Origin: an uncultured Actinomycetes bacterium
Lineage (GTDB): Bacteria; Actinomycetota; Thermoleophilia; RBG-16-64-13
DNA length: 64,000 bases
Direction: 5' to 3'
NCBI GenBank assembly: GCA_963829545.1
Contig: CAWHIX010000006.1
Span: 65,097 to 129,096 of the forward strand
Positions 16,966 to 64,000 of the stretch are shown in pieces. The notes under the pieces were generated by a model, which was not told the DNA's origin, made no database searches, and was given only the letters and a program-made list of their open reading frames with translations. A program made the position numbers and the translations under genes. Each line of letters opens with the position of its first letter. The first letter of the stretch is position 1.

Positions 16966-17852
16966 TCAGTCCGCCGCGGCGGTGTGCCGGAGGGTTATCT
17001 CCACGATCTGGGGCGGGGCGAAGAAGCGCACGGGCGGCACGATGCTGTTGCCGATGCCGTTGGAGACGATGACCGTGGTCGAGCCGTTCTCCACCACCCC
17101 GGTCCGGTACTTCTGCCCGTAGTCCGAGGGCAGGTAGAAGGCATAGAGGCCGAAGAAGCTGATCTGTCCGCCGTGCATGTGGCCCGAGAGCACCAGGTCG
17201 ACGCCTTCGGTCGGGCAGTTCCTCGGCGTAGTCCGGGTTATGGGACAGCAGGATGACGAAATCATCGGGGGACGTACTCTCCAGCGTCGGCTTGACGTCG
17301 GGGCTCGGCCATTTGATAGTCGCTTACTCCCCCCAGTCGTAACCGCTCCCCGTCTCTCTCCAGCCATACTCCCCGGTCGTCCAGCAATTCGATCCCCGAA
17401 GCGGCGATGGCCTCGATGGCGATCGCCGGGTCCTTGGCGTCGTCTCCTCCTAGGCGCTGGGGTTCTCCATAGTCGTGGTTGCCGAGCACCGCGAAGCGCC
17501 CCCACGCCGCCTCCAGGCGGGCAAGCTCCGAGAAGCAGGAACTCTCGTAGTCGGTGTTGCCGTACACGTAGTCTCCTCCGAGAAGGACGAGGTCGGGGGC
17601 CAGTGCGTTCGCTTGGTCCACGATGCGGCCCACGCGCTTCTCGCTGAAGAAGGGGCCGCGATGGATGTCGGTGAGAAAGACTATGCGTGCGCCGTCGAAG
17701 GCCTGCGGGATGTCCGGGCTGCTGTAGATGTAGCGCTTCAGCTCCACGCGGTAGGTCTCGACGATGCCGTAGGCGAGCAGGCCGGCACATATCGCGACGG
17801 CCGCGATCACCAGCAGCCAGATCCTACCCAACCGTCTTCCGAGGCGCGGCAT
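16966..17852 (-). pseudogene. Calcineurin-like metallophosphoesterase (YkuE-like, 1 TM) with two frameshifts
   Basis: N-terminus in the frame of ORF 17262..18014 ([19 protein letters not shown]...FLTDIHRG...LLGGDYVY...VLGNHDYG). The middle segment [17 protein letters not shown] is in a third frame. C-terminus in the frame of ORF 16966..17790 ([14 protein letters not shown]...). Breaks lie near 17262-17330, where there is a run of 6 C. Confidence 0.7.
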
Positions 17853-17917
17853 CGGCACCACTCCTATGGCGCGGCATGGAGAGCGGGGCCCGGCCTCGCG
17901 GCCGGGCCCCGGTGCTG

Positions 17918-18933
<1,016 letters not shown>

Positions 18934-19189
18934 CTTTGCTCACAGCTCCTCCTTGCCCAGCGTTTGGCGCTGAAATTCTAGCATCCGGTGAGTCGATGGG
19001 CCCCGACGGGGCGGGTACCCGCAGCTCTGGGTACGACATCCCCCACGAGTATCAGTTCCCGTTAGATGGAATGAGGTTCTGTCTATCGGTAAGAAGTCGA
19101 GGTCTCGCGGTGCGCGAATTGTGTTTCGCACGCCCTTATGTTTCGATTAACGAGTAACTATTCGCCCATATCCTTGGGAGGGGTTTCAG

Positions 19190-20622
19190 TGGAAGACGAT
19201 CGCGAGAAGCAGGCAGGGACTGTAAGCAGGCGTGACTTTCTGAAGATGGCGGGCATCGCCGGGGCGGCAATCGGCGCCGGCGCCGGTCTGGGCGGGCTTC
19301 TTGCGGCCTGCGGCGGAGACGACGAAACCACGACCACCGCCGCCGGCGAGACGACCACGTCGGCCGGCACCGAGACCACCGCGGGCGGCGAGACCACCAC
19401 CTCGGTACAGACCGACGCCGAACAGGGCGGCGAGATCAAGGCCGGCTACATCATCCCCGTAACCGGATCGATGGCCGCCTTCGGCGCAGCAGGCCAGTGG
19501 CAGCTCGACTGGTTCAACAAGAACACCTGGAAAGACGGCATCATCGGCGGCGACGGCAAGAAGTACAAGATGACCGCCACGATCTACGACAGCCAGTCCG
19601 ACTCCAACCGCTCCTCGCAGGTCACCAGCGACGCCATCCTTAACGACGGCGTGATGCTGGTCGGCGCCAGCTCGAGCGCGGCCAACGTCATCCCGGTGCG
19701 CGACATGGCCGAGTCTCTGGAAACCCCCGGTATCCATTACGACGTCCCCGGCGACGCCTGGCAGGCGGACGCGCCCGAGGGCGGCTTCAAATGGAACTGG
19801 TGCTCCTGGTGGGTCGGCAAGGACCTGGTAGGGAACTTCGTCAAGATGTGGGAACTGGTCCCCACCAACAAGGTGGTCGGGGCCCTCTGGGTCAACGACG
19901 CCGACGGAGACGTCTTCGCCGCCGTGCTGCCGGGGCTTTTCGAAGAGCTCGGTTACACGCTGGTCGACCCCGGTCAGTTCCCGGCGGGGACCGAGGACTT
20001 CACGGCTATCATCAGCCAGTTCAAGAACGAAGGCGTGGAGCTGGTCTGTGGTATGGCCAACCCGCCTGAGTTCACCAACTATGTCACGCAAAGCGCGCAG
20101 CAGGGCTTCCAGCCGAAGATCACCACCTGCGCGAAAGCCCTGCTCTTCCCCTCCTCTGTCGACGCTCTGGGCGACCTGGGCGACGGCATGACGGTGGAGG
20201 CCTGGTACAGCCCGCAGTATGCGTTCAAGAGCGACGTCACCGGCATGACTGCTCAGCAGTACTGCGACGACTTCGAGGCCACCACCGGCCAGCAGTGGAC
20301 CCAGCCGATCTGCTTCATCGGCTGCTTCGAACTGTGGACGGACGTCCTGCGCCGCGCCACGAACCCGCTGGACAAGGCCTCTATCGTGGAAGCCATCAAG
20401 GGGACCAACGTCACCCTCACCGGCGGTCCGGTCGACTGGACGGTCAACCCCGAGCCGAAGTTCGGCTTCTGGAACTTCTGCTCCAAGCCGCTCGCGGGTG
20501 GACAGTGGGTCAAGGACACCACGGGCAAACACAAGTACTCGATGGAACTCGTGGCCAGCGTGCAAGACCCGGCCAACATCCCGGTTACCGCCGAGATGAA
20601 GCCGATGGTGTACGCCTCCTAG
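19190..20622 (+). CDS. ABC-transporter substrate-binding lipoprotein (Peripla_BP_6/LivK-like), Tat signal SRRDFLK + lipobox LAAC, Thr-rich linker
   Basis: GTG at 19190 after RBS gggagg. Twin-arginine motif, lipobox cysteine, low-complexity TTTAAGETTTSAGTETTAGGETTTS, then a type-I periplasmic binding fold. No cognate permease or ATPase is adjacent. Confidence 0.85.
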
Positions 20623-48180: not shown

Positions 48181-49012
48181 CGTGTTGCACGCCGACAGCA
48201 GTCTCGCTCGGAGGCTGGAGGGACTCATATGCGCGGAGTTCGTTCGCCTGTGCGAGGTGGCGCGTATCGCATTGCCTGGGGCGGCGTCCGAATGCGTGGC
48301 TGTGGCCGATGGAGTCGCCCTCTGGTTGGGGGAGGGCTCCCCGGTGAACATCGCCGTCGGCTTGGGCATGAACGGCCCTGTGGACGAGGCCGCCCTGGAG
48401 CGGCTGGAGTCGTTCTATCACGAGCGCGGGGCGGCGGCAGCCCTCAGCGTGTGCCCCCTGGCCGATCGCTCGCTGCTGCGCCTGTTGGGACAGCGTGGCT
48501 GGCAGGCCGGCGACTTCGAGCACCTGCTGGTGCTCGAACTGGGCGCGGGTCGGCGGCCGGCGGAGAGCGTGGCAGAGACGGATGAGATCGAGGTGCGGGT
48601 CTGCCTGCCCGAGGAACGGTCGGAGTGGGCCGCGACCGCCGCCCGAGGATTCTCCGAGGGCGCGACACCGGAGCGGGGACACAAGGAGTTCGGCGCGGTG
48701 ATGGCGGAGCGCGAGGAGGCCATCCTGGTCCTTGCCCGGGTGGACGGGGTGGCGGCGGGCACCGGGAGCCTGGTCGTCGACGGGGGCGTCGGCTGGCTTT
48801 CGGGCGACTCCACTCTTCCGCAGTACCGTCGTCGCGGCATCCAGCAGGCCATCCAGGGGCACCGGCTCCGCTTGGCCCGAGATGCGGGGTGCGACATGGC
48901 CGTCACTGAGGCCGTGCCTGGGGGCGCCTCCCAGCGCAACATGGAGCGTCTGGGCTTCCGCATCGCCTACACGCACGTCGAGTTCACGAAGGGGGGATCA
49001 TATGGCGGATGA
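48181..49012 (+). CDS. GNAT-family N-acetyltransferase (tandem GNAT-like halves)
   Basis: GTG at 48181 after RBS gaaaggggg. The C-terminal half has VDGGVGWLSGDSTLPQYRRRGIQQAI (acetyl-CoA binding Q/RxxGxG/A). Confidence 0.65.
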
Positions 49013-49904
49013 GGCGGCGTGGATCACGGTGGGAGCGCTTGCGCACGCCTTCTCCGAGGACAGCTACGCGCCCAAAGCGACCACTGATCTCGCCGGCAAT
49101 ACCCTCACCCTTCATCTTGCGGAGGGTGGGGCGCTTGAGTACCGGTTCGAGAGTGCGACGGACCTCTTCTGGGCCGCCCTGGATGGGCCGGACGCCGGCC
49201 GGGACGGTACCACGACCTCGGGCCAGGGCGGCACCGCGGCGTACTTCGCCGCCAAGCTGCGGGAGGGGCTCTATTTTGTCGATCACCTGAGGACCGACGA
49301 GCGGGCGACCAGCGTCACCCTGCTGCTGGACCTGGGCCGGGGCATGGCCACGGTCATGACCGGCCGTCTACCCGAGGAAGCCGAGTCGCGCCAGGCCTTC
49401 GCCGACCGCATCGCGGCAGGTAAGGAACTCACCGCGGTCTCCGTCGCCTTCGCCTCCGCGGCTATCGATCGGCCCTTCACTCCGGAGACCCCGCGGCACC
49501 AGCCCACCCTCGACATGGTGGGCAAGCGGGTCGAGTACACCTACAGCCCGACTGAGTGCTACGAGCATATCTATCTGAACGAGCGCTTCTACACCTGGCA
49601 CTGCCTGCTGGGTTCGGAAAAGGGGCTGGCCGACACCGACCGTTGCCATTACTACAAGCTCGCCGACCGGCTCTACCTGTTCGTGTGGCGGGAGAAGATA
49701 GTCCCCACCCTGGGGTCGGTAGTGGTCGACTTGGAGGCCCTGCGCACGACCGGCAAGATCTTCGGCTATCAGGGCGAAGGTCCGGGAGGACTCTCCAACT
49801 TCCCCGTGGGCGCCCGGGCCCGGGTGCTGAACGCTGATGACGATCGAGGCATAGACCCGGCAGGGTCCCAGGTCCCTGGCAGAGCATCCCAGGACGTTTG
49901 CTAG
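49002..49904 (+). CDS. MoaF-like protein (MoaF N/C domains; assignment from memory)
   Basis: ATG 49002 after RBS aagggggg; overlaps the GNAT stop by 11 nt. C-terminal motif ERFYTWHCLLGSEKGLADTDRCHYYKLADRLYLFVWREKIVPTLGSVVVDL...TTGKIFGY. Confidence 0.5.
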   Translation: MADEAAWITVGALAHAFSEDSYAPKATTDLAGNTLTLHLAEGGALEYRFESATDLFWAALDGPDAGRDGTTTSGQGGTAAYFAAKLREGLYFVDHLRTDERATSVTLLLDLGRGMATVMTGRLPEEAESRQAFADRIAAGKELTAVSVAFASAAIDRPFTPETPRHQPTLDMVGKRVEYTYSPTECYEHIYLNERFYTWHCLLGSEKGLADTDRCHYYKLADRLYLFVWREKIVPTLGSVVVDLEALRTTGKIFGYQGEGPGGLSNFPVGARARVLNADDDRGIDPAGSQVPGRASQDVC

Positions 49905-50012
49905 GCGCTTGCACCTTCGCGTGCACCTCTGTTGCACCTTCGCGGTACTATCTCAACGTGCTCTTCCGGTCTAGTCTGGAATCTGGGAATGAAGCCCTCG
50001 GTCGGATGACGA
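49905..50012 (+). promoter_or_regulatory. Copy 1 of the conserved noncoding element (TTGCACC repeats, -10-like TACTAT, conserved downstream block), upstream of SulP
   Basis: gcgcTTGCACCTTCGCGTGCACCTCTGTTGCACCTTCGCGGTACTATCTCAACGTGCTCTTCCGGTCTAGTCTGGAATCTGGGAATGAAGCCCTCGGTCGGATGACG; about 85% identical over 62 nt to the copy at 55894-55985. Confidence 0.55.
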
Positions 50013-50079
50013 AGACGAAGCTACGCAGACGGCTCCTTAACCAGCAAGCGACCGACCGCGGACAGGAGGTGGCGGCCCC

Positions 50080-51786
50080 GTGAAACTGCCCGGTATGTTC
50101 AAGCGCCTGAAGCCGGACCGCAAGACGGCCCGCGCGGATCTGGTGGCCGGGGTCGTCCTCGGGGTAGAGAGCGTGCCCGACGCGCTCGCCTCAGGAGTGC
50201 TTGCGGGTATCAATCCGCTCTACGCTCTATACGGGGTGATGATGGGCACCCCCGTGGGGGCCATCTTCTCCGGTTCCGTCTTCCTGAGTGTGCAGACCAC
50301 GAGTGCCATGGCGCTCGTGGTGGCCAGCGTCCCAGTTGTCACCAGCGGTGACTCCCCGGGGACGCTCTTCGCCCTTTCTCTCCTGACCGGGGTGATCATG
50401 CTCCTGGCCGGCTTCCTGAAGGCAGGACGGCTCCTGCGCTGGGTGCCCAATTCGGAGATGGTGGGCTTCATGACCGGGGTGGCCGCTCTCATCCTCCTGG
50501 GTCAGTTGGGCGACCTCACCGGGTACTCGAGCGAATACAGCAACAAGGTCGCGAAGGCCGTGGATCTGCTGTTCAACCTCGACCAGGTCGATCTCCCGAC
50601 TGTGGCGGTGGGGATCGGCACGATCATCCTCATCATCGTCCTGCAGAAGACCCGCCTCCGCGGATTCGGCCTTGTGGTGGCGATCATAGTGACCTCCATC
50701 CTCCCGTCGCTCTTCGGTTGGGATTCGGTGGCCAAGGTCTCGGACATAGCCGAGATCACGGGCGGACTGCCCAGGCCCGCCCTTCCGGATTTCTCGCACT
50801 TCTTCGAACTCATCGTGCCGGCGCTCTCCCTGGCTGTCATCGGGCTCATCCAGGGGGCGGGGGTGAGCCAGTCTTTCGTGAACCCGGATGGACGATACCC
50901 CAATCCTTCGCGGGATTTCATCGGTGAGGGAGCGGCCAACGTCGCGGCCGGCATATTTCAGGGCATGCCGGTCGGCGGTTCGGCCTCCGCTACCTCTCTT
51001 GTGGTGAGCAGCGGGGCCAGGACGCGCCTCGCGAACATCTTTGCGGGTGTGGTGATCGCCATCGTCGCGCTGCTTTTCGCGGGAGCGGTCGGCAAACTCG
51101 CCCTGCCTGCTCTTGCGGGCCTGCTCATGGTCATCGGCTTTGGGATCATCAAGCCCGCCAACATACGTGGTGTATGGCACACAGGCAACATCCAGCGGGT
51201 CATCATGGTGATCACGTTCGTCTTGGTCTTGATGATTCCGCTGGAATACGCGGTGCTGGTGGGAGTAGCCCTCTCTATCTTCCTGTTCACCCTACGCCAG
51301 TCCCATCGGATCGTAGTGGTGGAGTGGAAGCTCAAAGAAGGCCGGCTTCCGATCGAGGGGACGCCGCCGGCCACGCTCCTGCCGGGAAGCGTCACCGTGC
51401 TGGTCCCCTTCGGGACCCTGTTCTACGCTGCGGCTCCGGCCTTTGTAGAGCACCTCCCGAAGACAGACGCGCAGACGAAAGAAGCGGTGGTGATAATCAA
51501 CCTTCATGCCCGCACGGACCTGGGCAGCACATTCATGCGCACCATCGACCGATACGCCGAAGACCTCAAGAAGCACGGCAGTCGCCTGATGCTCGCCGAG
51601 GTGGATCCATCGCTCCGGGACCAGTTGGCGCTGGCAGGCATCGTGGATTCGATCTCACGCAGAAGCATATTCATGCGTACGGAAGAAGTCGGGGGGTCGC
51701 TCTACGAGGCCTACGCCGTCGCCGAGGAATGGGTCTCCCGGCAGCAGGCGATCAAGGACGACGAGCCGGCGGGTGAAGCCGAGTGA
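50080..51786 (+). CDS. SulP-family anion (sulfate/bicarbonate-type) transporter with C-terminal STAS domain
   Basis: GTG start after RBS aggagg; ...DLVAGVVLGVESVPDALASGVLAGINPLYALY...; STAS domain in the last ~120 aa. Confidence 0.85.
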   Translation: MKLPGMFKRLKPDRKTARADLVAGVVLGVESVPDALASGVLAGINPLYALYGVMMGTPVGAIFSGSVFLSVQTTSAMALVVASVPVVTSGDSPGTLFALSLLTGVIMLLAGFLKAGRLLRWVPNSEMVGFMTGVAALILLGQLGDLTGYSSEYSNKVAKAVDLLFNLDQVDLPTVAVGIGTIILIIVLQKTRLRGFGLVVAIIVTSILPSLFGWDSVAKVSDIAEITGGLPRPALPDFSHFFELIVPALSLAVIGLIQGAGVSQSFVNPDGRYPNPSRDFIGEGAANVAAGIFQGMPVGGSASATSLVVSSGARTRLANIFAGVVIAIVALLFAGAVGKLALPALAGLLMVIGFGIIKPANIRGVWHTGNIQRVIMVITFVLVLMIPLEYAVLVGVALSIFLFTLRQSHRIVVVEWKLKEGRLPIEGTPPATLLPGSVTVLVPFGTLFYAAAPAFVEHLPKTDAQTKEAVVIINLHARTDLGSTFMRTIDRYAEDLKKHGSRLMLAEVDPSLRDQLALAGIVDSISRRSIFMRTEEVGGSLYEAYAVAEEWVSRQQAIKDDEPAGEAE

Positions 51787-51856
51787 TCGCGAGAGACTCG
51801 GGCGCGCGCGATGAGCAATAAGGAGAAGACGCAATCTCAAGCGGGAGGAATCCGCG

Positions 51857-53002
51857 ATGAGCGATAGCAATTTGGTGCCCCTACCTCTGCCGACCTTCGC
51901 CGGTGGGACGAAGGCCATCACCACAACGCCGATCGTCGGCACACCGCGACGAGAGTATGCCGACGTGTTCGTTCCGGGCGATGAGCCGCTTGAGGACGGC
52001 GAACTGCGCGTAACGGTACTCGGCAGCGGGAACCCCTGGGCGACGCGCGCTCAGGCCTCGGCTTCCATCCTCGTCGAGGTCGGCAATCCCGAGCGCGACC
52101 TTCTCATCTTCGACCTAGGCACCGGCTCCCTCGCCAACTACGCGAGCCTGAAGCTGCCGGTCAACCTGCTCGACAAGGTGTTCTTGACCCACCTGCATGC
52201 CGACCACACGGCCGACATCATCACGCTCTCCGGCAGCTACTCGAAGGTGGGACGGGCGGACGGCCCCGTCAAGGTCTGGGGTCCCAGCGGCACCGAGCCC
52301 CGTCTCGGCACGCGGCACTTCTGCGAGGGGATCGAGATGGCGCTCGCCTGGGACACTGAGGCCGGGAAGGGCCCGATCAACGAGGACAGCATGAGGATCG
52401 TGGCGCACGAATTCGACTGGAGCCAGACCGGGCTCGTGTACGAGGCGAACGGCGTCAGCGTGACGTCCTTTCCGGTCGTCCACGCTCTGAGCGGCGCCGT
52501 CGGCTACCGCCTCGACTTCGCGGGGCTGTCGTTCGCCTACTCGGGCGACACCTGCGCGGCTTGGCCGCTGGTGCGCGCCAACGAAGGTGGCGTCGACCTG
52601 CTCATCCATGAGTGCTTCCCGCCCGCCGCGGCACTGGCGGCGGCTTCGGGTCTCTCGATCGAGCGGGCGACGATGGCGCTCAACGCCGCGCATACCTCGC
52701 CCAAGGCTGCGGGCAAGGTGTTCAGCCTCGTGAAGCCGCGAGTGGCGGGTCTGTGGCACACGCTGCTTTCGCCCGTGGTCATCCCAATGATCCACGAGGA
52801 ACTGCGCACGGTCTATGACGGACCCGTGGTGCAGACTCAGGACCTGACCGTGTTCAACGTGACCAAGGAAGCCGTGGTCGCGCGTCAGGCTCAGGTCATG
52901 GACCAGCTGCCCCCGACCCCGGGGGTACAGCGCGTGGCGTTCGTTCCCGCGCTGCCGACTCCTCCCGAGTGGTGGGCCGAGGCCCGTATTCCGCTCGAGT
53001 GA
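51857..53002 (+). CDS. MBL-fold metallo-hydrolase (RNase Z/ElaC-like beta-lactamase fold)
   Basis: LRVTVLGSGNP...FLTHLHADHTADI (HxHxDH)...GLWHT. Confidence 0.8.
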   Translation: MSDSNLVPLPLPTFAGGTKAITTTPIVGTPRREYADVFVPGDEPLEDGELRVTVLGSGNPWATRAQASASILVEVGNPERDLLIFDLGTGSLANYASLKLPVNLLDKVFLTHLHADHTADIITLSGSYSKVGRADGPVKVWGPSGTEPRLGTRHFCEGIEMALAWDTEAGKGPINEDSMRIVAHEFDWSQTGLVYEANGVSVTSFPVVHALSGAVGYRLDFAGLSFAYSGDTCAAWPLVRANEGGVDLLIHECFPPAAALAAASGLSIERATMALNAAHTSPKAAGKVFSLVKPRVAGLWHTLLSPVVIPMIHEELRTVYDGPVVQTQDLTVFNVTKEAVVARQAQVMDQLPPTPGVQRVAFVPALPTPPEWWAEARIPLE

Positions 53003-53141
53003 CCACTTAGCGACCGCGAGGATAATCGGGCCGGCCGCGAAGGCCCATTGCCGCTCTTGGAGGAGCCCCGAACCGGGGCTCCTTCTGCGAGAACGCGGCG
53101 GGGCTGGCCATCCGCCCAGGCCGCGTGGGAGAATCGGCGAT

Positions 53142-55851
53142 ATGAAGACGACCAGCCGTATCCTGCGCGCCAAACTACGCCCTCCCCGCCTGGGGCCGGA
53201 TCGACTGGAGCGGCCGCGGCTCCTCGCCCAGTTGGACCGGGGGCTCTTAGGGCAGTGCATCCTGGTCTGCGCTCCAGCCGGCTACGGCAAGACCACGCTG
53301 CTAGCGCAGTGGATCGAGCGCACGGAGTTGCCGGCGGCGTGGCTCTCGCTCGACGACGGCGACGATGAGCCCGCCCTCTTTCTGGAGGAGTTGGTGGAGG
53401 CGTTGGGGTCGGCCGTCCCCGGCTGCTGTCGCGGCACTCGTTCGACCCTTGCCCGAGCAGCGCTGCCCCCGCTCGACGTGCTGAGCCGGCAGCTGGCGAA
53501 CGACATGGACGACCTCGACGAGTTTATCCTGGTGCTGGACGACTGCCAGAAGCTGCAAGACCCAGCGCACCCTCGAGATCCTTCGCCGCCTGCTCTTTCA
53601 GCCGCCGCGCTCCCTGCATCTGGTGCTGTCCTGCCGGGCGGATCCGCGCATACCCGTGGGCGCCCTACGGGGGCGAGGACTGCTGCTCGAGTTGCGGGCG
53701 GCCGATCTGCGCTTCAGCGAGCAGGAGGCGGTCCAGTACCTGGAGCAGACGCTGGGGCCGTCTCTGGACCGGAGCCATGTGACGTTGCTCCTGGAACGAA
53801 CGGAGGGATGGATCACTGGTCTGCATTTGGCCGTACTGTCGCTTCAGGGCCGTTCGGACGTGGAGCAAGGCATCCACGAGTTTGCGGGCAGCGATCGCTA
53901 CATCGCCGACTACCTCCTGGAGGAACTGCTGGCTCGCCTGGATCCCGCGATGCAAGAGTACCTTCAGGCCACCTCCATCCTGGAACGCCTCTATGCCCCG
54001 CTGTGTCGGGCGGTCACGGACGAGATGTCGCTGGAGGTCGTAGAGGGAGAGCCGGCGCTGGAATGGCTGGAGGAAGCCAACCTCTTCGTGGTCTCCCTGG
54101 ACGAGCAGCGCGAGTGGTTCCGCTACCACCACCTCTTCCGGGATCTTCTCCGTTACCGACTCCTGGCGAGCCGGCCCCCGGAACAGGTGGCCGCCCTGCA
54201 CGTCCGTGCGGGCGGGTGGCTCGGAGCCAACCAGCAGGTGGAGAGCGCAATCGACCACTTGCTCAAAGCCGGAAGGCCGGATCTAGCGGCGGACATGGTG
54301 GGCGAACACCGCCGAGAGGCCCTCGACCGGGAGCGCTGGCGGGCGCTCGAGCGGTGGGTGCACCGGCTGGGCGAGGATGTGGTCCACTCCCGTCCGTCTC
54401 TGGTGCTGATCTACGCCTGGCTGGCCCACCAAAGGATGGACTGGGCGGACATGCTTCGTCATTGCGACCGGGCCCAGGAACTGCTCGACTTTCCTGAGGA
54501 GTCCCTCCCCGACGAGGCGAGCCTGAGGGGAGAGATCGCCGCCATGCGTGCGGAGGTCAGTTACTGGCGGGGGGAGGGCGACGCCGCCCTGTCTCAGGCC
54601 CGCCAAGCGCTGGCCCTGCTTCCGGCCGACCACCGCTTGCCCCGGGCTATGGCCACCGTGATCGAGGGCGGCGCTCTGCAGCTGAGCGGGGACATCCCGG
54701 AAGCCTTCCAGGTCCTCCGCCAAGGCGCCTTCGGGGAGTACGGGAAGGGCATTCACCCTCGGACTACCATCGCACTAGCCCTTCTGGCCTTCATGGTCGG
54801 CGACGTGGCTCAAGCGGCTCAGGCGGCAAGACTGCTGCTCTCCCAGGCCCGCGAGCTGGGTGTGGGGGAGAGCGAGGGCTGGGCCCTCTACCTCCAAGGG
54901 CTGGCCGCCTACCTTGGCAACGATCTCTCCGCGGCCGAGGAGAAGTTCCAGGCCGTGGATCCTTACACCTCCCACGTGCTGCTGGGCAAGCAGTCCTGCT
55001 ACGGGCTGGCCTGGGTGCGGCTGGCTCAGGGGCGAGCACATGAGGCGCTCGAGGTGATGGACCGGTTCATGGTGGTGGCATCCGACCTCAACCTCCCGGT
55101 GGGAACCGAGGTCCAGCTGCTACGCGCCCGCCTGGCCAGACTGTCCGGCCGGCCCGTGGCCGCTGCGGGCTTGGCTCGGAGCCTCCTGCCGCCAGCGGGT
55201 GAGGGACCCCTGGGGTTGGCCGTCTGCTACGAGCTCAGCCCCCTCAGCGCCATCGCCCTCCTGCTGCTGGAGGGCGACGAGGATGACCTGCCGGCGTGTG
55301 CGGCGGGGCTGCGGCGTCTGCTGGCGGTCGCCGAGAGGAGTGGCAACGTCTTCCGCTCCGTCCAGTGCCTCATCCTGGAGGCTCTGCTGTTGGACTTGGA
55401 GGGCCGCAATGCCGAGGCGCTGGCGGCGCTGGGCAGGGCGGTGACGCTGGCCCAGCCCGGCCGTCTTATCCGCCTGTTTCCTGAGATGGGTGGCCGGGTA
55501 CGGCCGCTCCTTGTCGCCCTCCGCCTGCGAGGGCGCGTCGACGCCTTCGTGGACGAACTGATCACCTCGTTCACGGGGGAGGAATCCCCATCCGGCGCCA
55601 CTCCCGGCCCCCATCCGGTGATTTCCGGCCAGGAAGACTTGATCGACGTCCTGCTGACCAACCGCGAACTCGCTGTGCTCGAACTGCTGGAAGAACGGCT
55701 GAGCAACAAGGAGATCGCCCGGCGGTTGGTCATATCTCCGGCAACCGTCAAACGCCACACCCTCAGTATCTACCGCAAGCTCGGCGTTTCAAGCCGCCGC
55801 GACGCGGTGGCGAAGGCCAGGCACCTAAGGATGCTTTCGACCTCGCGGTAG
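53142..55851 (+). CDS. LAL/MalT-type large ATP-dependent LuxR-family transcriptional regulator (NTPase + TPR-like + C-terminal HTH); one frameshift near 53558-53570
   Basis: ORF 53142..54497 carries the N-terminus (ILRAKLRPPRLGPDRLERPRLL...CAPAGYGKTTLLAQW...FILVLDDCQKLQDPA). The frame then switches to ORF 53623..55851 (QRTLEILRRLLFQPPRSLHLVLSCRADPRIP...TEGWITGLHLAVLSL...LTNRELAVLELLEERLSNKEIARRLVISPATVKRHTLSIYRKLGV). Confidence 0.8.
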
Positions 55852-55893
55852 TACACCGACTCGTCGGTCGCGCCTGTCCGGACCGTATCCATC

Positions 55894-55985
55894 TTTGCAC
55901 CTGTGTTGCTCCTTCGTGGTGCTATCCCGGCCTGCTCTTCTGTTCTAGTCTGGGATGAGACCGTCGGACGGACAGGGGACCAGCG
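55894..55985 (+). promoter_or_regulatory. Copy 2 of the conserved noncoding element, 35 nt after the LAL regulator stop and ending 1-2 nt before the ATG of the next gene
   Basis: TTTGCACCTGTGTTGCTCCTTCGTGGTGCTATCCCGGCCTGCTCTTCTGTTCTAGTCTGGGATGAGACCGTCGGACGGACAGGGGACCAGCGA. Confidence 0.55.
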
Positions 55986-55986
55986 A

Positions 55987-56295
55987 ATGACACTAACCGA
56001 CCCACCCGATGCCTCCCGCGACATGCCGACCCTCTACGAGATCCGGGTCTGCGGATCCTTCGACCAGAAGTGGTGTGGCCTTGTGGAAGGGATGACCCTG
56101 GAGGTCGTCCACGACGAAGCTCTGCCGGTGACGGTGATCCGTGCGGTCGTGCAGGACCAGGCCGAACTGGCCGGCCTGTTGGATGCGCTGTTCGGTCTGA
56201 ACGCCAGGGTGCTCTCGGTGACGGCCCTGGAGACGGCGCAGGCGTCGAAGACTCGCCGCGGGCTTGCGTCGCCGACTCGGGAACTGACGGAGTAA
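55987..56295 (+). CDS. Small conserved-looking protein of unknown function (~102 aa)
   Basis: MTLTDPPDASRDMPTLYEIRVCGSFDQKWCGLVEGMTLEVVHDEALPVTVIRAVVQDQAELAGLLDALFGLNARVLSV; the alpha/beta pattern suggests a small ferredoxin-like or ACT-like fold. No confident family. Confidence 0.5.
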   Translation: MTLTDPPDASRDMPTLYEIRVCGSFDQKWCGLVEGMTLEVVHDEALPVTVIRAVVQDQAELAGLLDALFGLNARVLSVTALETAQASKTRRGLASPTRELTE

Positions 56296-56306
56296 GAGAG
56301 GACGCC

Positions 56307-57086
56307 ATGACGTCAACGCCTTCGACCGGCTTCGTGGCCCAAGAGAGTCGCGCGGCGACGAGCCCGCGCGCGGGCGCCATCGCCGGCCTGCTGTTCGCGA
56401 TCCTGTTCGCGGTGAGCGTCACCCTCATCCGCCTGGCTGCGTCGGGGGCGGCCGACGAGGCCGGCGACTGGCTGGGAGACAAGGCCGGGTGGGTCTCGTT
56501 CGCGCTCGGACTCATGCCCTTTGCGGGCATGTTCTTCCTCTGGTTCATCGCGGTCGTACGTACTCGTCTGGGTCGCTTCGAAGACCAGTTCTTCGCCACC
56601 GTCTTTCTGGGCAGCGGGCTGATATTCCTGGCGATGGTGTTCGTGGCTGCGGGCGTTGCAGGCGGTATGGCCGTCAGCTACAGTCGCGCCCCTGCCGAGT
56701 TCGTCGAGAGCCCTTCGTACTACTTCGCCCGCGACGTGGTCATGCAGATCTTCGTGGTCTATGCGATGCGCATGGCCGCCATCTTCATCTTCTCCCAGGC
56801 CGCCTTGTGGCTGCGGACGAAGGTCATGCCGCGGTGGATGGCTTTCCTTAGTTTCGTCGTAGGATTCGTGCTATTGGTCGTGATACAGCAGTCGCTTTGG
56901 ATCATCCTTCTCTTCCCAGCGTGGGTCTTCCTCGTGAGCCTGTATATATTGATCATGAGCTTCACTCGCCGGCGGGCGGGGAGCGCGGACGGTATGACGC
57001 CGGCGACAGGCCTACCGGCGACCGGCGCACCGACCGCGGAGGTGTCGGTGTCGGCGTCGAGTCCTTCGGCCGGGCCGACGACATGA
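56307..57086 (+). CDS. Polytopic membrane protein of unknown function (6 predicted TM helices)
   Basis: MTSTPSTGF...AIAGLLFAILFAVSVTLIRL...FFLWFIAVVRTRLGRFEDQFFATVFLGSGLIFLAMVFVAAG... Confidence 0.6.
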   Translation: MTSTPSTGFVAQESRAATSPRAGAIAGLLFAILFAVSVTLIRLAASGAADEAGDWLGDKAGWVSFALGLMPFAGMFFLWFIAVVRTRLGRFEDQFFATVFLGSGLIFLAMVFVAAGVAGGMAVSYSRAPAEFVESPSYYFARDVVMQIFVVYAMRMAAIFIFSQAALWLRTKVMPRWMAFLSFVVGFVLLVVIQQSLWIILLFPAWVFLVSLYILIMSFTRRRAGSADGMTPATGLPATGAPTAEVSVSASSPSAGPTT

Positions 57087-57144
57087 TGCCGCGGCGTGTG
57101 GCTCGGCCGCCGTTCATGGGCTGACCAGCAAGAGTGGGTGCCGA

Positions 57145-57172
57145 TGTTTACCTAGCGAGTAGAGTGTAAACA
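57145..57172. promoter_or_regulatory. Inverted repeat TGTTTAC-N14-GTAAACA (operator-like) upstream of the DUF1269-sulfatase gene
   Basis: ccgaTGTTTACctagcgagtagagtGTAAACAcatc is AT-richer than its surroundings; TTGACA occurs about 115 nt downstream and RBS aagggaagg precedes GTG 57343. Confidence 0.35.
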
Positions 57173-57342
57173 CATCAACTTGGAAGCAACGTAGGGACAG
57201 AGGGTAGGAAGGGAGAGCCTGACAGAAATCGGGTCCTGCTGAGACCGCAGGCGCGCTGCTGGCGCCGTCGACGTGCTCATCTGGGTGTTGACAGGCACGT
57301 CGTGGATCGAAAAGAGCCGCTGACAACTAAGGGAAGGTTAAC

Positions 57343-60250
57343 GTGAGCAAGGAAGATAAGAACGTTGTCATCGTGGCCGCTTACATGGGAACCGAGCCGG
57401 CCAAGAAGAACTTCGACCAACTCACGCAGTTGGTGAAGGATAAGAAGGTCAAGAGCGACGGTATCATTTTGGTCGAGAAGGACAAGGACGGCCAGTTGCT
57501 CGTCAGCGAGACCGGCGACCATCTCGGCCGCAAGGGGGCGGAATGGGGCGGCGGGGTCGGCCTGCTGGTCGGTCTCTTTGCGCCGCCACTGCTGGCTGCG
57601 ACCGCCGTGGGCGCTGCAGCCGGTGCGCTGGTCGGCAAGTTCGCCAAGCACAAGATCGTGGACGGTATCGAGGGCGGGTTGGGTCAGAATCTCAAGCCGG
57701 GCCAGGCCGCGATACTCACCATCGTCGAGGAAAAGGATCGCCTCGCCGCAGAACAGGCGTTGGTCGACTCACCGGCCAAGTCGGTGGCGGTCATGGAAGA
57801 AGGCGGCGCCGAGGGCCTCAAGGCGGCCCTGAACGAGGCTCGCGGGAAGTTCAATCCCGATCGCACCGTGCTGCCGATACCCGACAAGACCTTCGGCGGG
57901 GCGGTCGCCCGCACGATGGACCGGGCAGTCGCGGACTGGAGCTTCATCCCCGGTCCGAAGGCTCCCGAGAGCGCACCCAACGTCCTGATCGTGCTCGTCG
58001 ACGACGCCGGTTTCGGCGGACCGGAACCTTTCGGCGGCGAGATCCACACCCCCACGCTGGAGCGTATCGGTCAGATGGGCCTGACCTACAACGCCTTCCA
58101 CGTGACGGCTGTGTGCTCTCCTACCCGCGCGGCGCTGCTCACCGGGCGCAACCATCACCGCGTCGGCATGGGCGGCATCGCCGAGTTTCCGGGACCGTTC
58201 CCCGGCTACACGGGCGTGCGGCCGCGCAGTTGCACGGGGCTGCCCCGCATCTTGAAGGAGAACGGCTACGTCACCGCCGGCTTCGGCAAGTGGCACATGA
58301 CGCCTGGCCGCGAGATGGGACCGGCCGGCCCCTTGAGCACTGGCCGCAGGCCTGGGGCTTCGACCACTGGTGGGGCTTCCTTACCGGCGCGGCTGGCCAG
58401 TACGACCCGGTCATCACCCAGGACAACTCGGTGCTCGGCGTCCCCGAGGGCAAGGACGGGAAGCTCTACTACTTGCCCGACGACATCACCGACAAGACTA
58501 TCGAGTGGCTGCACGCCGTCCGCGCGCACGACGCTCACAAGCCGTGGTTCGTCTACTACTCCACGGGCGCGACCCATGCGCCGCATCATGTCGCCAAGGA
58601 GTGGGCCGACAAATACAAGGGCCAGTTCGACGACGGCTGGGACAAGTACCGCGAGCGGACCCTTGAGCGCCAGAAGAAGCTCGGCATCGTGCCGCCGGAT
58701 ACTGAGTTGGCAGCCCGACCCGACCCGTACCCGGCCTGGGATACCCTCAGCGACGCGGAAAAGAAACTGTACGCCCGCCAGATGGAAGTCTTCGCCGGCT
58801 TCTCAGAGAATACCGACTGGAACGTCGGCCGGCTGATCGACGAGATCGAGGAGATGGGCGAACTGGACAACACGCTCATCATGTATATCTGGGGTGACAA
58901 CGGCGCGAGCATGGAGGGTACGACCACCGGTTCCTTCAACGAGACGACCTTCTTCAATGGTGTCGTGCTGAACGCCGAGCAGCAATTAGCGCTGATCGAG
59001 AAATTCGGCGGCATCGAAGAACTCGGCGGCGAGCACACCGCCCCGCACTTTGCCGCGGCCTGGGCACATGCCAACAACACCCCCTTCCAATGGGGCAAGC
59101 AGATGGCCAGCCACCTTGGCGGCACGCGCGATCCGATGGTCGTCGCTTGGCCGAGCCGCATCAAGCCTGACAGCCAGGTCCGCAGCCAGTTCACCCACTG
59201 CATCGACATCGCCCCGACCATCCTGGAAGCCATCGGCGTTCCCGAACCGAAGGTGGTCGACGGCATCGAGCAGGAGCCCATGGACGGCACCAGCTTCTCC
59301 TACACGTTCGAAGATCCAGGTGCCGCGGCGCGCCACACCGTGCAGTACTTCGAGATGTACGGCAGTCGCGCCATCTATAAGGAAGGCTGGTGGGCCTGCT
59401 CGCGGCTCGACAAGCTGCCGTGGGACTTCTCGCCGGCGACGCTCAGTCGCTTCGCGCCGGGCAGCGGGTATGACCCCGACCAGGATACGTGGGAGCTCTA
59501 TTACCTCCCGGACGACTTCAGCCAGGCCAAGAACCTGGCGGTCGAAAAGCCTGAGAAGCTGGCCGAACTCAAGGAGCTCTTCTGGCAGGAGGCGGAGCGC
59601 AACCGGGCGCTGCCGCTACTCGGCGGAATGGCGGTGTTCTTCGGCATCCTGCCGCCGATGCCGACGGTCACGCGCCACAGCTTCGCCGGCGATGTTCAGA
59701 ATGTGTCGACCACGGTGATCCCCCGCATCTACGGGCGATCCTACGCGATCGAAGCCGAACTCGAAGTCCCGGAAGGCGGGGCCGAGGGCGTGCTGTGCGC
59801 CTTCGCCGACTTCATCGGCGGGTTCTCGCTATGGGTTGACGAGAAGGGCCACCTCATCCACACCTACCAGTTCCTCGGCGTGGACACCTACAAGCAGGTC
59901 TCGACCGAGCCGATCCCGACCGGCGATGTGACCGTGAAGATGCTGTTCGAGATCGACGAGCCCAAACCGGGGGCCGGTGGAAAAGTGACCCTGTGGGCCA
60001 ACGACAAGCAGATCGGCGAAGGCACGATGCCCCACTCCGTGGCGATGCTCTTCACGACCTATGCCGGTATGGACATGGGCCGCGACAACGGTGGCGTGGT
60101 CGACCTGGATACGAGGACAAGGCGCCGTACGCCTTCACCGGCAAGCTGAAGAAGGTCGTCTTCGATCTCAAACCCGCTCACCTGGAAGCGGAGCAGGGTC
60201 TGCATCAGCACGCGATGGTCAACGCGGTGGCCGCAGGTGCTGCCGGCTGA
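57343..60250 (+). CDS. DUF1269 membrane domain fused in-frame to a Cys-type arylsulfatase (CSPTR formylglycine motif); two single-nt frameshifts (about 58320 and 60095)
   Basis: ORF 57343..58836 carries DUF1269-like KNVVIVAAYMGTEPAKKNFDQL...GGGVGLLVGLFAPPLLAATAVGAAAGALVGKF...LKPGQAAILTIVEE, then APNVLIVLVDDAGFGGPEPFGG...AVCSPTRAALLTGRNHHRVGMG...GKWH. ORF 57543..60149 continues the sulfatase in another frame (PQAWGFDHWWGF...). The C-terminus YEDKAPYAFTGKLKKVVFDLKP is in ORF 59993..60250. Confidence 0.8.
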
Positions 60251-60620: not shown

Positions 60621-62370
60621 ATGAGCGAGCCGAGTAGAACAAGCACCGGGGAAAAGGGGCGCTCCGGCGGCATTGCCCGCTACGTCCCCATCCTTTCGTG
60701 GTTGCCCAGCGTACGACCGGAAGTGGCTCGGCGCCGATGCCATCGCGGGGCTGACCGCTTGGGGCCTTCTGGCCCCGGAGGCCATGGCCTACGCGGGCAT
60801 CGCCGGTCTTCCACCGGAGACCGGGCTGTACGCCCTGGTTGCGTCCCTCTTGGTCTACGCCCTGCTCGGCAGCTCGCGCCACCTGTCGGTCCAACCGACT
60901 TCGGCGACCGCCGCTCTTATCGCCTCGACTGTGGTCGCGCTGGGTGTCGCTGCAAGCGACATGGCGACCTACCAGTCGTACGCGATCATGCTGGTGTTGC
61001 TCGTGGGGGTAGGCTTCGTCATCGCCGGCTTTGCGCGCCTGGGCTTCATCACGCAGTTCCTCTCCAAGCCGGTGATGGATGGGTTCGTCACGGCCCTGGC
61101 TTTCTTCATCGCCATCGGACAACTCAACAAGCTTTTCGGCGTCGAGAAGGGAGAGGGCAACAGCTTCCAGAAGCTCTTCAGCGTCATCGAAAGCCTTCCG
61201 GAGGCCAATTGGACCACGTTCGCGGTCGGGGCTTCGGCGCTGGCGCTGCTCTTCCTTCTTCCCCGCCTGAGCAGGCGCATCCCGGCCGGACTCGTCGTGC
61301 TCTTCCTCTACATCCTTGTCAGCTACCTGCTCGATCTGAGCGGCCGTTTCGGCGTGGAGGTGGTCGGCGAACTGCCGCAGGGGCTTCCCTCCCTCACGTT
61401 TCCTGATGTGCCGGCGTCCGAGATACTGAAGATGGTGCTCCCGGCCATCGGCATCGTCCTTGTCGCCTACAGCGAAGCCCTCGGGGTGGCCCGGGAGTTC
61501 GCGGAGAAGCACGGCTACGAGGTCGACCCCAACCAGGAACTGCGTGCCCACGGGATAGCCAACCTGGCGAGTGGCTTCTTCGGTGGGCTGCTGGTTGCGG
61601 GAAGCATGTCCGGGTCGGCGGTGAAAGAGGGGGCGGGAGCCCGTACCCAGGTCTCCAGCCTGGTGGCCTGGGTGGCCGTCATCATCACCGTTCTCGTCCT
61701 CACTCCCCTCTTCAAGACCTTGCCGGAGGCTGTGCTCGCCGCACTGATCATCCACGCCGTGTGGCATATCATCGTGGCCCGCAAGCTCAAACAGGTGCGA
61801 CTCGTATCGCGTCCGGAGTTCCTCCTCGGAGTCCTCACCTTCTTCGCCTTGCTCCTCACCGACGTTCTCCAGGGCATGATGGTAGGCCTCATCGCCTCCC
61901 TCATCTGGTTCATCTACAAGGCCACCAAGCCCCATCTGGCATCTCTGGGTCGCGTTGTTGGCGCCAAGGATGTCTTCTCCGATATCACCCGTCATCCCGA
62001 AGACACGCCGGTGCCGGGGCTGCTGATCCTCCGCCTCAACGCCCCGCTGTTCTACGCCAATGCACAGAGCGTGCGCGACCAAGTCAAGACCCTGGTGGAC
62101 CACACCGATCCCTCGCCACGCGCGGTGCTCTTCGACGCGGTGGCCCAGGACGACCTGGACGTGACCAGCGCGGACACCCTGAGGAAGCTGTTCGCAGAAC
62201 TGCAGCAGCGCGGGATCGACATCTACCTGGCTGAAGTCCACGCACCGGTGCGTGAGTTCGCACGCCGTGTCGGTCTCTCGGATATGATTGCCGAGGACCA
62301 CATATTCCCCACCGTCCCCTTAGCCGTCGCGGCATTCGAGTCCCAACGAAAGGAGTCAGACTATGTTTGA
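60621..62370 (+). CDS. Second SulP-family transporter with STAS domain; N-terminal about 30 codons in a different frame (frameshift near 60710)
   Basis: N-terminus MSEPSRTSTGEKGRSGGIARYVPILSWLPSV (frame of ORF 60540..61406), then the body in ORF 60673..62370 (YDRKWLGADAIAGLTAWGLLAPEAMAYAGIAGLPPETGLYA...). Confidence 0.8.
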
Positions 62371-62844: not shown

Positions 62845-63047
62845 ATGGGACCACGTAGAGGACCGAATCCCCCCGGACCTGTCGGCGGCGTCGGCCGCGG
62901 ACCTAACCCTCCGGGACCAGTGGGCGGTGTCGGCCGTGGACCAATCCCCCCGGCCCTGTCGGTGGCGTCGGCCGCGGACCAAACCCCCCCGGCCCCGTGG
63001 GCGGCGTCGGTGTGGGACGCCGCAATGGCGTGGGGCTGCTGCGCTAG
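62845..63047 (+). CDS. Small Gly/Pro-rich tandem-repeat peptide: M-GPRR-(GPNPPGPVGGVGR)x3-GPNPPGPVGGVGV-GRRNGVGLLR (one 1-nt deletion in repeat 3 as sequenced)
   Basis: RBS aggaggcagaata + ATG 62845. Four 39-nt repeats; repeats 1 and 2 differ at 8 positions, all synonymous. ORF track entry 62845..63222 reads through in the shifted frame. Confidence 0.5.
62860..63014 (+). repeat. 4 x 39-nt tandem direct repeat (third copy 38 nt)
   Basis: ggaccgaatccccccggacctgtcggcggcgtcggccgc / ggacctaaccctccgggaccagtgggcggtgtcggccgt / ggaccaatccccccggccctgtcggtggcgtcggccgc / ggaccaaacccccccggccccgtgggcggcgtcggtgtg. Confidence 0.85.
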
Positions 63048-63791: not shown

Positions 63792-64000
63792 ACCACGTCC
63801 CTCCCGTGAACCGTCCGGCGCGGCTCCGATCGTCGTAGACAAGGACAGACCCGCTATTGTACGGCGCATAGAATGATACTAGAATGGGTACCAAGCTACT
63901 GAATATATTACTCTAACTCGTCCGCCGCCGCACGACCTTTGGCGGCAGAGTTGTGGCCACAAGTCCCCTGCAGGAGAAAGCATGAAGGCACTGGCGGCAT

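Follow-up and report, generated by a model that had tools for sequence, protein, structure and literature searches.

Regulators of the LAL type (large ATP-binding members of the LuxR family) bind short inverted repeats, and MalT recognizes boxes of the form GGA[TG]GA (PMC9628970). One genomic region of Actinoplanes sp. SE50/110 comprises 51 genes, of which 40 are activated by a MalT-like LAL whose own gene, malT, sits in a MalT-dependent operon; the box is a palindrome, TCATCC-5 nt-GGATGA, which overlaps the −35 element and whose 3' end is located 34.4 ± 1.0 nt from the mapped transcription starts (PMC7567727). Here we describe a noncoding element of ∼90 nt that occurs twice next to a MalT-type LAL gene of an uncultured Actinomycetes bacterium (Actinomycetota; Thermoleophilia; RBG-16-64-13). 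The stretch that was analysed, hereafter the window, comprises 64,000 nt of contig CAWHIX010000006.1 (positions 65,097 to 129,096 of the forward strand; all coordinates below count from its first letter unless a related locus is named).

Comparison with related loci indicates that both copies are probably LAL-dependent, class II-type promoters of the sigma-70 family that contain the operator of the adjacent MalT-like LAL. The LuxR-type helix-turn-helix (HTH) domains of the oligomeric LAL would bind a near-palindrome, (T)GCACC-N5-GGTGC(T), and the protein would also occupy none, one or two further TGCACC half-sites upstream, placed one helical turn apart. The promoter-proximal edge of this operator would abut the −35 position, which is devoid of a consensus, so that the bound LAL would replace −35 recognition and RNA polymerase would be recruited to TAGTCT, 22 nt downstream. 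Transcription would then begin ∼6–7 nt past the −10 hexamer, near 49983/4 for an operon encoding a SulP transporter and an MBL-fold hydrolase, and near 55957/8 for a small ACT-like protein and a membrane protein; the transcript from copy 1 possibly extends as far as the LAL gene. The identity of the LAL as the binding protein, its role as an activator and the transcription starts are what we infer from the evidence set out below.

Two copies of the element in the window

A repeat search recovered 49922–49982 and 55896–55956 as a two-copy family, aligned without gaps over 61 nt with 50 identical positions (82%). The original prediction, made on the sequence of the window, had called attention to two look-alike noncoding segments here: both are present and both are intergenic, and their similarity is real, although the measured value replaces the ∼85% over 62 nt first quoted. 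Copy 1 lies between the stop codon of MoaF (49904) and the GTG of the SulP gene (50080), copy 2 between the stop codon of the LAL gene (55851) and the ATG of a small gene (55987). When three mismatches are allowed, each half of the shared sequence is found at only two places in the 64-kb window, where shuffled sequences lead one to expect 0.00, and a profile built from 21 related copies recovered just these two in the window. The LAL, sulfatase and second SulP (SulP2) genes of the window were also searched for operator copies ahead of them, and none was found.

The TTGCACC-like heptamers are as first described, three in copy 1 (TTGCACC at 49909, GTGCACC at 49921 and TTGCACC at 49932) and two in copy 2 (TTGCACC at 55895 and TTGCTCC at 55906). 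All the features that follow are on the plus strand. The three TGCACC half-sites of copy 1 (49910–49915, 49922–49927 and 49933–49938, together spanning 49910–49938) are spaced by 12 and 11 nt, and the third constitutes the left arm of the near-palindrome. The right arm, CGGTACT (49943–49949), is a variant of the otherwise near-invariant TGGTGCT: GGTGCT is kept in every copy but this one, its near-identical orthologue in locus L001 and one degenerate copy in locus L006. The deviant arm may weaken the site. Exactly 22 nt past it stands TAGTCT (49972–49977), the putative −10 element, which conforms to a TANNNT pattern, and the start site is predicted near 49983–49984. Directly after this hexamer an 8-nt tandem duplication, CTGGAAT/CTGGGAAT (49976–49990), appears in the alignment as an 8-nt insertion; it is absent from all other copies and may have shifted or weakened the start site of copy 1.

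The operator of copy 2 (55896–55923) is composed of TGCACC (55896–55901), TGCTCC (55907–55912) and TGGTGCT (55917–55923), with the near-palindrome GCTCC-N5-GGTGC centred at 55915. Its putative −10 element, TAGTCT (55946–55951), is again 22 nt past TGGTGCT and is followed immediately by a GGGAT discriminator. Transcription is predicted to start at 55957–55958, in keeping with the distance rule established in Actinoplanes (PMC7567727). The 5' untranslated region (UTR) would thus measure ∼29 nt (55958–55989), with a Shine–Dalgarno sequence GGGGA at 55975–55979 ahead of the conserved ATG at 55987. This region (...CAGGGGACCAGCGNATGACA) is conserved among the aligned relatives, and the start codon of the small gene is backed by protein alignment.

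Conserved anatomy in related loci

Orthologous loci were collected through homologues of the small protein encoded after copy 2 (n = 61, P0001–P0061, all metagenomic), a route independent of the DNA motif, and conservation was judged on at least 25 related copies from metagenomic relatives, all of whose source organisms are uncultured metagenome-assembled genomes (MAGs). In every locus fetched via the small protein the small gene is immediately preceded by the element. For 16 of the 17 copies orthologous to copy 2 (b-type), the element in turn directly follows the 3' end of a LuxR-HTH gene, and the gene tables of the relatives show a full MalT-type LAL at this position. The recognition region of the LAL HTH, (A/S)P(A/S)TVKRHTLSIY, is essentially invariant among 16 orthologues. 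The genes 3' of the small gene differ among loci: a membrane protein, a sulfatase and SulP may be found there, or in other loci an ADH with a cyclase and a rhodanese-linked oxidoreductase, a glycyl-radical enzyme, or a LOR-domain protein.

We also scanned 185,579 species-representative genomes with a degenerate core pattern matching all 12 copies then known. Four MAGs, labelled uncultured Actinomycetota or Actinomycetes, were the only genomes with true copies, and a metagenome scan contributed eight further true copies. Six of the 12 genome matches and eight of the 16 metagenome matches belonged to unrelated taxa and were discarded after inspection as due to chance.

Close relatives share almost all of the 90 nt. 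Distant orthologues, whose small proteins are 57–64% identical, keep TTGCACC-TTYG-TGGTGCT, which contains the near-palindrome GCACC-N5-GGTGC; they keep the length of the 22-nt spacer exactly while its sequence is free (L007, L008, L012, L038 and L039), and they also keep TANNNT, followed by a G-rich stretch, the Shine–Dalgarno region and the ATG. The TGCACC half-sites number from one to three per copy among relatives and advance in steps of 11–12 nt.

In actinobacterial −10 elements positions 1, 2 and 6 are fixed and positions 3–5 are variable. The hexamer downstream of the spacer was recovered in ten versions (TAGTCT, TAGCCT, TAGGTT, TACGCT, TAGGAT, TACATT, TAGACT, TACAAT, TAACGT and TAGGGT): since T1, A2 and T6 are fixed in these while positions 3–5 vary freely, TANNNT behaves like an actinobacterial −10. 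We take TAGYCT/TANNNT, which is situated inside the downstream block of the original prediction, as the candidate −10. The promoter proposed originally, with TTGCAC as −35, a 19-nt spacer and TACTAT or TGCTAT as −10, finds no support: the A of that −10 is G in L001, L006, L007, L008, L012, L025, L038 and L039, and the hexamer reads TGCTGT or TGCTAG in many copies. TRCTAT is thus unlikely to be the −10, because the essential A or the final T is lost in many orthologues.

No −35 consensus (TTGACA-like) follows GGTGC in any of the copies, which read, for example, TATCCC, TGTCCG or TAGGCC at this place. A scan with a generic sigma-70 consensus likewise disclosed no site in either copy of the window, as is to be expected of a promoter that lacks a −35 element. 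If TAGYCT is the −10, the distance that separates the box's 3' end and the start would amount to 22 + 6 + about 6–7 = 34–35 nt. The operator consensus that emerges is (TGCACC-N5)0-2 - TGSWCC - N4 - TGGTGCT - N22 - TANNNT.

Recurrence before other genes and the putative regulon

The related loci were searched with a test pattern consisting of a half-site no more than 34 nt upstream, then GGTRCT, N22 and TANNNT. This pattern occurs 24 times in the fetched loci, as against 0.13 times per shuffle, and its matches precede at least six different kinds of gene, none farther than about 10 kb from a LAL gene. In addition to the copies at small genes and SulP, candidate promoters were located before a Na+/H+ exchanger gene in L038 (about 12395, minus strand) and, in L039, before a DUF6325-SHOCT-LOR operon (about 7497, plus strand) and a DUF7144 operon (about 13813, minus strand). 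Three others are divergent from the LAL gene: one before a PLDc_N/SHOCT gene in L007 (about 6880, minus strand), one before an unannotated 144-aa gene and then a PLDc_N/SHOCT gene in L008 (about 7055, minus strand), and one before an unidentified gene in L012 (about 4916, minus strand).

The LAL is the sole regulator gene consistently present across the gene tables of the relatives. Recurrence of the same architecture before other genes near the LAL is the behaviour expected of an operator common to a local regulon. The further copies that a search of relatives was meant to reveal were found both at orthologous loci and before these other genes, and the idea of a LAL-controlled regulon, already voiced in the original prediction, is favoured by the comparative evidence: the LAL is upstream in 16 of 17 copies, the architecture recurs, and the predicted geometry matches that of MalT promoters. 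Between the two options envisaged at the outset, an activator-dependent promoter with its operator or a structured 5' leader, the same evidence favours the former.

The putative regulon so far includes genes for SulP transporters, the sulfatase, the Na+/H+ exchanger and SHOCT/PLDc_N, DUF6325 and DUF7144 proteins. The picture suggests a regulon of membrane or stress type that is not strictly sulfur-related; a sulfur link of the inducing ligand is hinted at by the cargo genes alone. With the operator consensus and the predicted starts, the regulon can be listed from sequence alone.

The closest relative of the window, L001, is 96% identical to it, and positions 17148–20256 of that locus correspond to the region just past the 3' end of the window. 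They hold a second LAL gene, then a divergent element (TTAGACCCTAGTGGTGCT-N22-TACGCT) and then a second small-protein gene. A third LAL/element/small-gene module is probably present in the genome of the window right after position 64000.

Activation or repression

The same sites could be read as the operator of a repressor: the LAL, or some other factor, would cover the −35 region and block RNA polymerase, and induction would relieve the block. The operator does overlap the predicted −35 position and a precedent exists, since the Streptomyces LAL SCO6993 represses its targets via short palindromes (PMC9628970). However, no copy displays a recognisable −35 hexamer after GGTGC, and these promoters look unable to fire alone; moreover, their predicted geometry equals that of proven MalT-activated promoters. 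We regard repression as decidedly unlikely.

A number of observations nonetheless weigh against LAL-dependent activation. The assignment of the −10, together with all positions relative to +1, is putative. The spacer and 5' UTR of close paralogues are conserved beyond what the promoter model explains, which could reflect a second, hidden site or gene conversion. The sequence of the box is not that of the MalT box, GGA[TG]GA. The left arm changes from TGCACC to TGGACC in L038 and L039, while L037 and the third copy of L001 have TTAGRCC, and no co-variation with the LAL recognition helix was found, this helix being invariant but for an A-to-S replacement in L037: the arm varies without a matching change in the helix, and therefore no protein–DNA co-variation backs the pairing of LAL and operator. 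Some LALs, SCO6993 among them, are repressors (PMC9628970). Finally, within the window the right arm of copy 1, CGGTACT, is deviant and the LAL frame is broken in the assembly.

Origin of copy 1 and age of the duplication

Copy 1 has a paralogous origin that can be traced in relatives. Positions 49905–49979 of the window align to 1371–1445 of L002, which is an element of a second type (a-type). From 49994 onward the window aligns at 91% to L002 from 2227 onward, that is, to the 3' end of a membrane-protein gene and then to SulP. An intact a-type operon is found in L031, with the element followed by a small paralogue, a membrane paralogue, SulP1, SulP2 and MBL. Copy 1 is therefore interpreted as an a-type operon that has undergone a deletion of ∼780 bp; the L002 and junction alignments identify 49994–50083 (plus strand) as the remnant of the 3' end of the deleted membrane-protein gene.

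The junction of the deletion falls in a short microhomology, GCCCTCGG..CGGA, which accounts for the TCGGnCGGA block that the original prediction had listed after the shared sequence. In copy 1 this block sits at the junction, outside the duplicated element, and its homologue in relatives is the 3' end of the membrane-protein gene. The 25-codon upstream open reading frame (uORF; 50006–50083, plus strand) fares in a similar manner: it exists and its TGA overlaps the SulP GTG (50080), as had been noted, but it is a scar of the deletion rather than a designed feature. The junction alignment shows that its ATG is new in the lineage of the window, and the relatives are without the uORF. Copy 1 exemplifies the re-use of such a promoter after a deletion.

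This history raises the question of whether the similarity between the copies is a mere leftover of a segmental duplication that comprised the element and the small and membrane genes, without regulatory meaning. Part of this account is correct: the a-type copy of relatives precedes small and membrane paralogues, and copy 1 is that operon minus ∼780 bp. Yet, when a- and b-type paralogues from one community are compared, identity amounts to 87.5% over the 80 noncoding nt and to 72% at third codon positions of the gene that comes next, a difference that argues for function. The similarity of the two types starts exactly at the distal half-site; in relatives it runs on into the small gene at 72–75% identity, as compared with 87.5% for the noncoding part, and within the window the similarity of copies 1 and 2 ends before the coding sequences. 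Furthermore, the architecture is retained where the small proteins have diverged to 57–64% identity, and it recurs before unrelated genes. The original prediction had named a recent duplication extending into coding sequence as one finding that would refute its proposal: the duplication seen in relatives does take in the small and membrane genes, but it is old and its noncoding part is the better conserved. A functionless relic is very improbable.

Another activator or an RNA element

A different activator, for example of the SARP or OmpR type, might bind the heptamer repeats and use TRCTAT as the −10. Activators of this kind employ heptamers spaced by 11 nt that end 8 nt before the −10, and copy 1 bears a resemblance to this layout, with repeats 11–12 nt apart and a TTGCACC that ends 8 nt before TACTAT. 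The resemblance does not extend to the relatives: TRCTAT is TGCTGT or TGCTAG in many orthologues, a single TGCACC is present in several, and the gene tables of related loci list no SARP or OmpR-type gene, whereas the LAL is always there. The SARP-like geometry was dropped on account of the orthologues' readings at the TACTAT position, and we give this activator scarcely any chance.

The least credible proposal is that the element acts as RNA, be it a structured 5' leader, a riboswitch or a small RNA. In its favour, close paralogues stay conserved across the spacer and for about 35 nt past the −10, and GCACC/GGTGC could pair as a 5-bp hairpin if transcribed. But the consensus that RNAalifold computed from 21 copies has −1.8 kcal/mol and three pairs, which make up the ACC/GGT core of the palindrome, with 0 compensatory changes, and in copy 2 the fourth pair of the hairpin is broken without compensation. 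Neither the two copies nor their putative leaders fold better than shuffled sequences (z-scores +0.4 to +2.0). An E-value scan of 48500–57500 against Rfam 15 returned only chance-level matches, all outside the element, the predicted leader of copy 2 is ∼29 nt long, and the spacer of distant orthologues has kept its length and lost its sequence, so that hairpin and leader were rejected on the RNAalifold, folding and Rfam results.

Genes of the locus

The LAL-dependent promoters proposed here are embedded in a set of genes whose identities, as called originally, are upheld by Pfam. MoaF (49002–49904) precedes copy 1. The copy 1 operon (50080–53002, plus strand) is headed by the SulP/STAS transporter (50080–51786) and has as its second gene the MBL-fold hydrolase (51857–53002; Pfam and NCBIfam). 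Against the NCBIfam model NF041257 ('guanitoxin biosynthesis GntH', cut-off 333) this hydrolase reaches 391 bits, and its counterparts in relatives also match the Anti-Pycsar Apyc1 family of Pfam.

The MalT-type LAL gene (53142–55851, plus strand) displays the Pfam domains AAA_16/AAA_22, TPR_MalT and GerE (LuxR HTH). It had been described as lying exactly between the two copies: it does lie there, in the company of the SulP and MBL genes. The window LAL, scored on its C-terminal 742 aa, reaches 258 bits against a cut-off of 537 for the NCBIfam MalT equivalog, and is therefore a relative of MalT and not MalT itself; intact orthologues, 872–902 aa in length, carry WHD_MalT. In L037, the segment 6700–6900 upstream of the LAL seems to hold two tRNA-like sequences (GGAGAAGTGGCCGAGAGG... 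and GCGCCTGTAGCTCAGTTGG...), apparent by eye only.

The reading frames of the locus are not all intact. The LAL gene is frameshifted by a net +1 nt at 53564–53571, in a C-rich run, relative to the intact 902-aa orthologue, and the DUF1269-sulfatase frame (57343–60149; Pfam) has a 1-nt frameshift at about 58330. Because long-read assemblies of relatives show genes fragmented in like manner, the two frameshifts are probably assembly indels; that both genes are pseudogenes is the less likely explanation.

Copy 2 is followed on the plus strand by the gene for the small protein of 102 aa (55987–56295), which has a ferredoxin-like fold in the model described below, and then by that for a 259-aa membrane protein (56307–57086), which is without a Pfam match. 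The stretch 56532–57500 yielded no terminator-like site on the plus strand. Further downstream are the sulfatase and SulP2 (60673–62370; Pfam). A 39-nt tandem repeat occupies 62860–63010 (3.9 copies, 79% matches; alternatively 77 nt × 1.9), between a DUF6325-like gene and a TetR-like gene on the minus strand; open reading frames on either strand of the repeat would encode proline/glycine-rich repeats.

The small protein measures 84–102 aa among its homologues and is always the product of the first gene after the LAL and operator. Searches of Pfam, NCBIfam and PDB sequences gave no match. Its AlphaFold model (pLDDT 72) presents a generic beta-alpha-beta-beta-alpha-beta, ferredoxin-like fold, for which Foldseek retrieved weak ACT/PII-like matches (E of at least 0.02). 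The small protein may be a partner of the LAL that binds a ligand. A broader conjecture, which we consider rather unlikely, is that the LAL, the operator-promoter and the small ACT/PII-like protein make up an undescribed three-part sensing module, in which the small protein would bind a metabolite and feed back on the LAL, a part that MalK, MalY and Aes play for MalT; the cassette of operator, −10, 5' UTR and ATG would have been copied time and again before new transporter and stress genes, its sensitivity tuned by gain or loss of 11-nt half-sites.

Comparison with characterized systems

At class II-type promoters of the LuxR/TraR kind the lux box is centred near −42.5. The element resembles these in having a dyad site for a dimeric LuxR-HTH protein, centred here about −43 from the predicted start, that would replace the −35. 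It differs in the length of the site, 15–17 bp here and 20 bp there, in the presence of extra direct half-sites, and in its regulator, which is a large STAND ATPase and not an acyl-homoserine-lactone receptor.

MalT of Escherichia coli and Klebsiella offers a second parallel, as further boxes lie upstream at its promoters as direct repeats in helical register, in the same manner as in the window element. The boxes of this system (GGGGA[T/G]GAGG) are likewise served by a STAND/LAL activator with a LuxR HTH, and the proximal box is at −35 (PMC7567727, PMC9628970). The canonical core hexamer GGA[T/G]GA is absent from the sites described here, which read TGCACC/GGTGCT, and ligand and regulon are unrelated to maltodextrins.

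The closest likeness is with MalT of Actinoplanes. In both cases an actinobacterial MalT-like LAL is encoded within the region it controls, or would control; the box has a 6-5-6 layout with an inner CC...GG (TCATCC-N5-GGATGA there, TGCACC-N5-GGTGCT here), overlaps or abuts the −35 and ends ∼34–35 nt from the start, mapped there and predicted here. Several promoters, predicted ones here, cluster near the regulator gene, which itself lies, or here may lie, in an operon dependent on the regulator, and the cargo genes have scant annotation and vary from one relative to another. The two systems diverge in the sequence of the box, in the extra direct half-sites at 11–12-nt intervals, which are undescribed in Actinoplanes, and in the cargo, which is amino-acid-metabolism-like there and consists here of SulP, sulfatase, small ACT-like, SHOCT/PLDc_N and DUF6325 genes. 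The element represents neither a new mechanism nor a new class of RNA: it would be a familiar kind of gene switch, encountered here in uncultured soil actinobacteria, and for a LAL subfamily that uncultured soil Actinomycetota possess and that is as yet uncharacterised, it supplies a concrete operator consensus that can be tested. After Actinoplanes, it would be the second actinobacterial example of a MalT-type 6-5-6 box at the −35 position.

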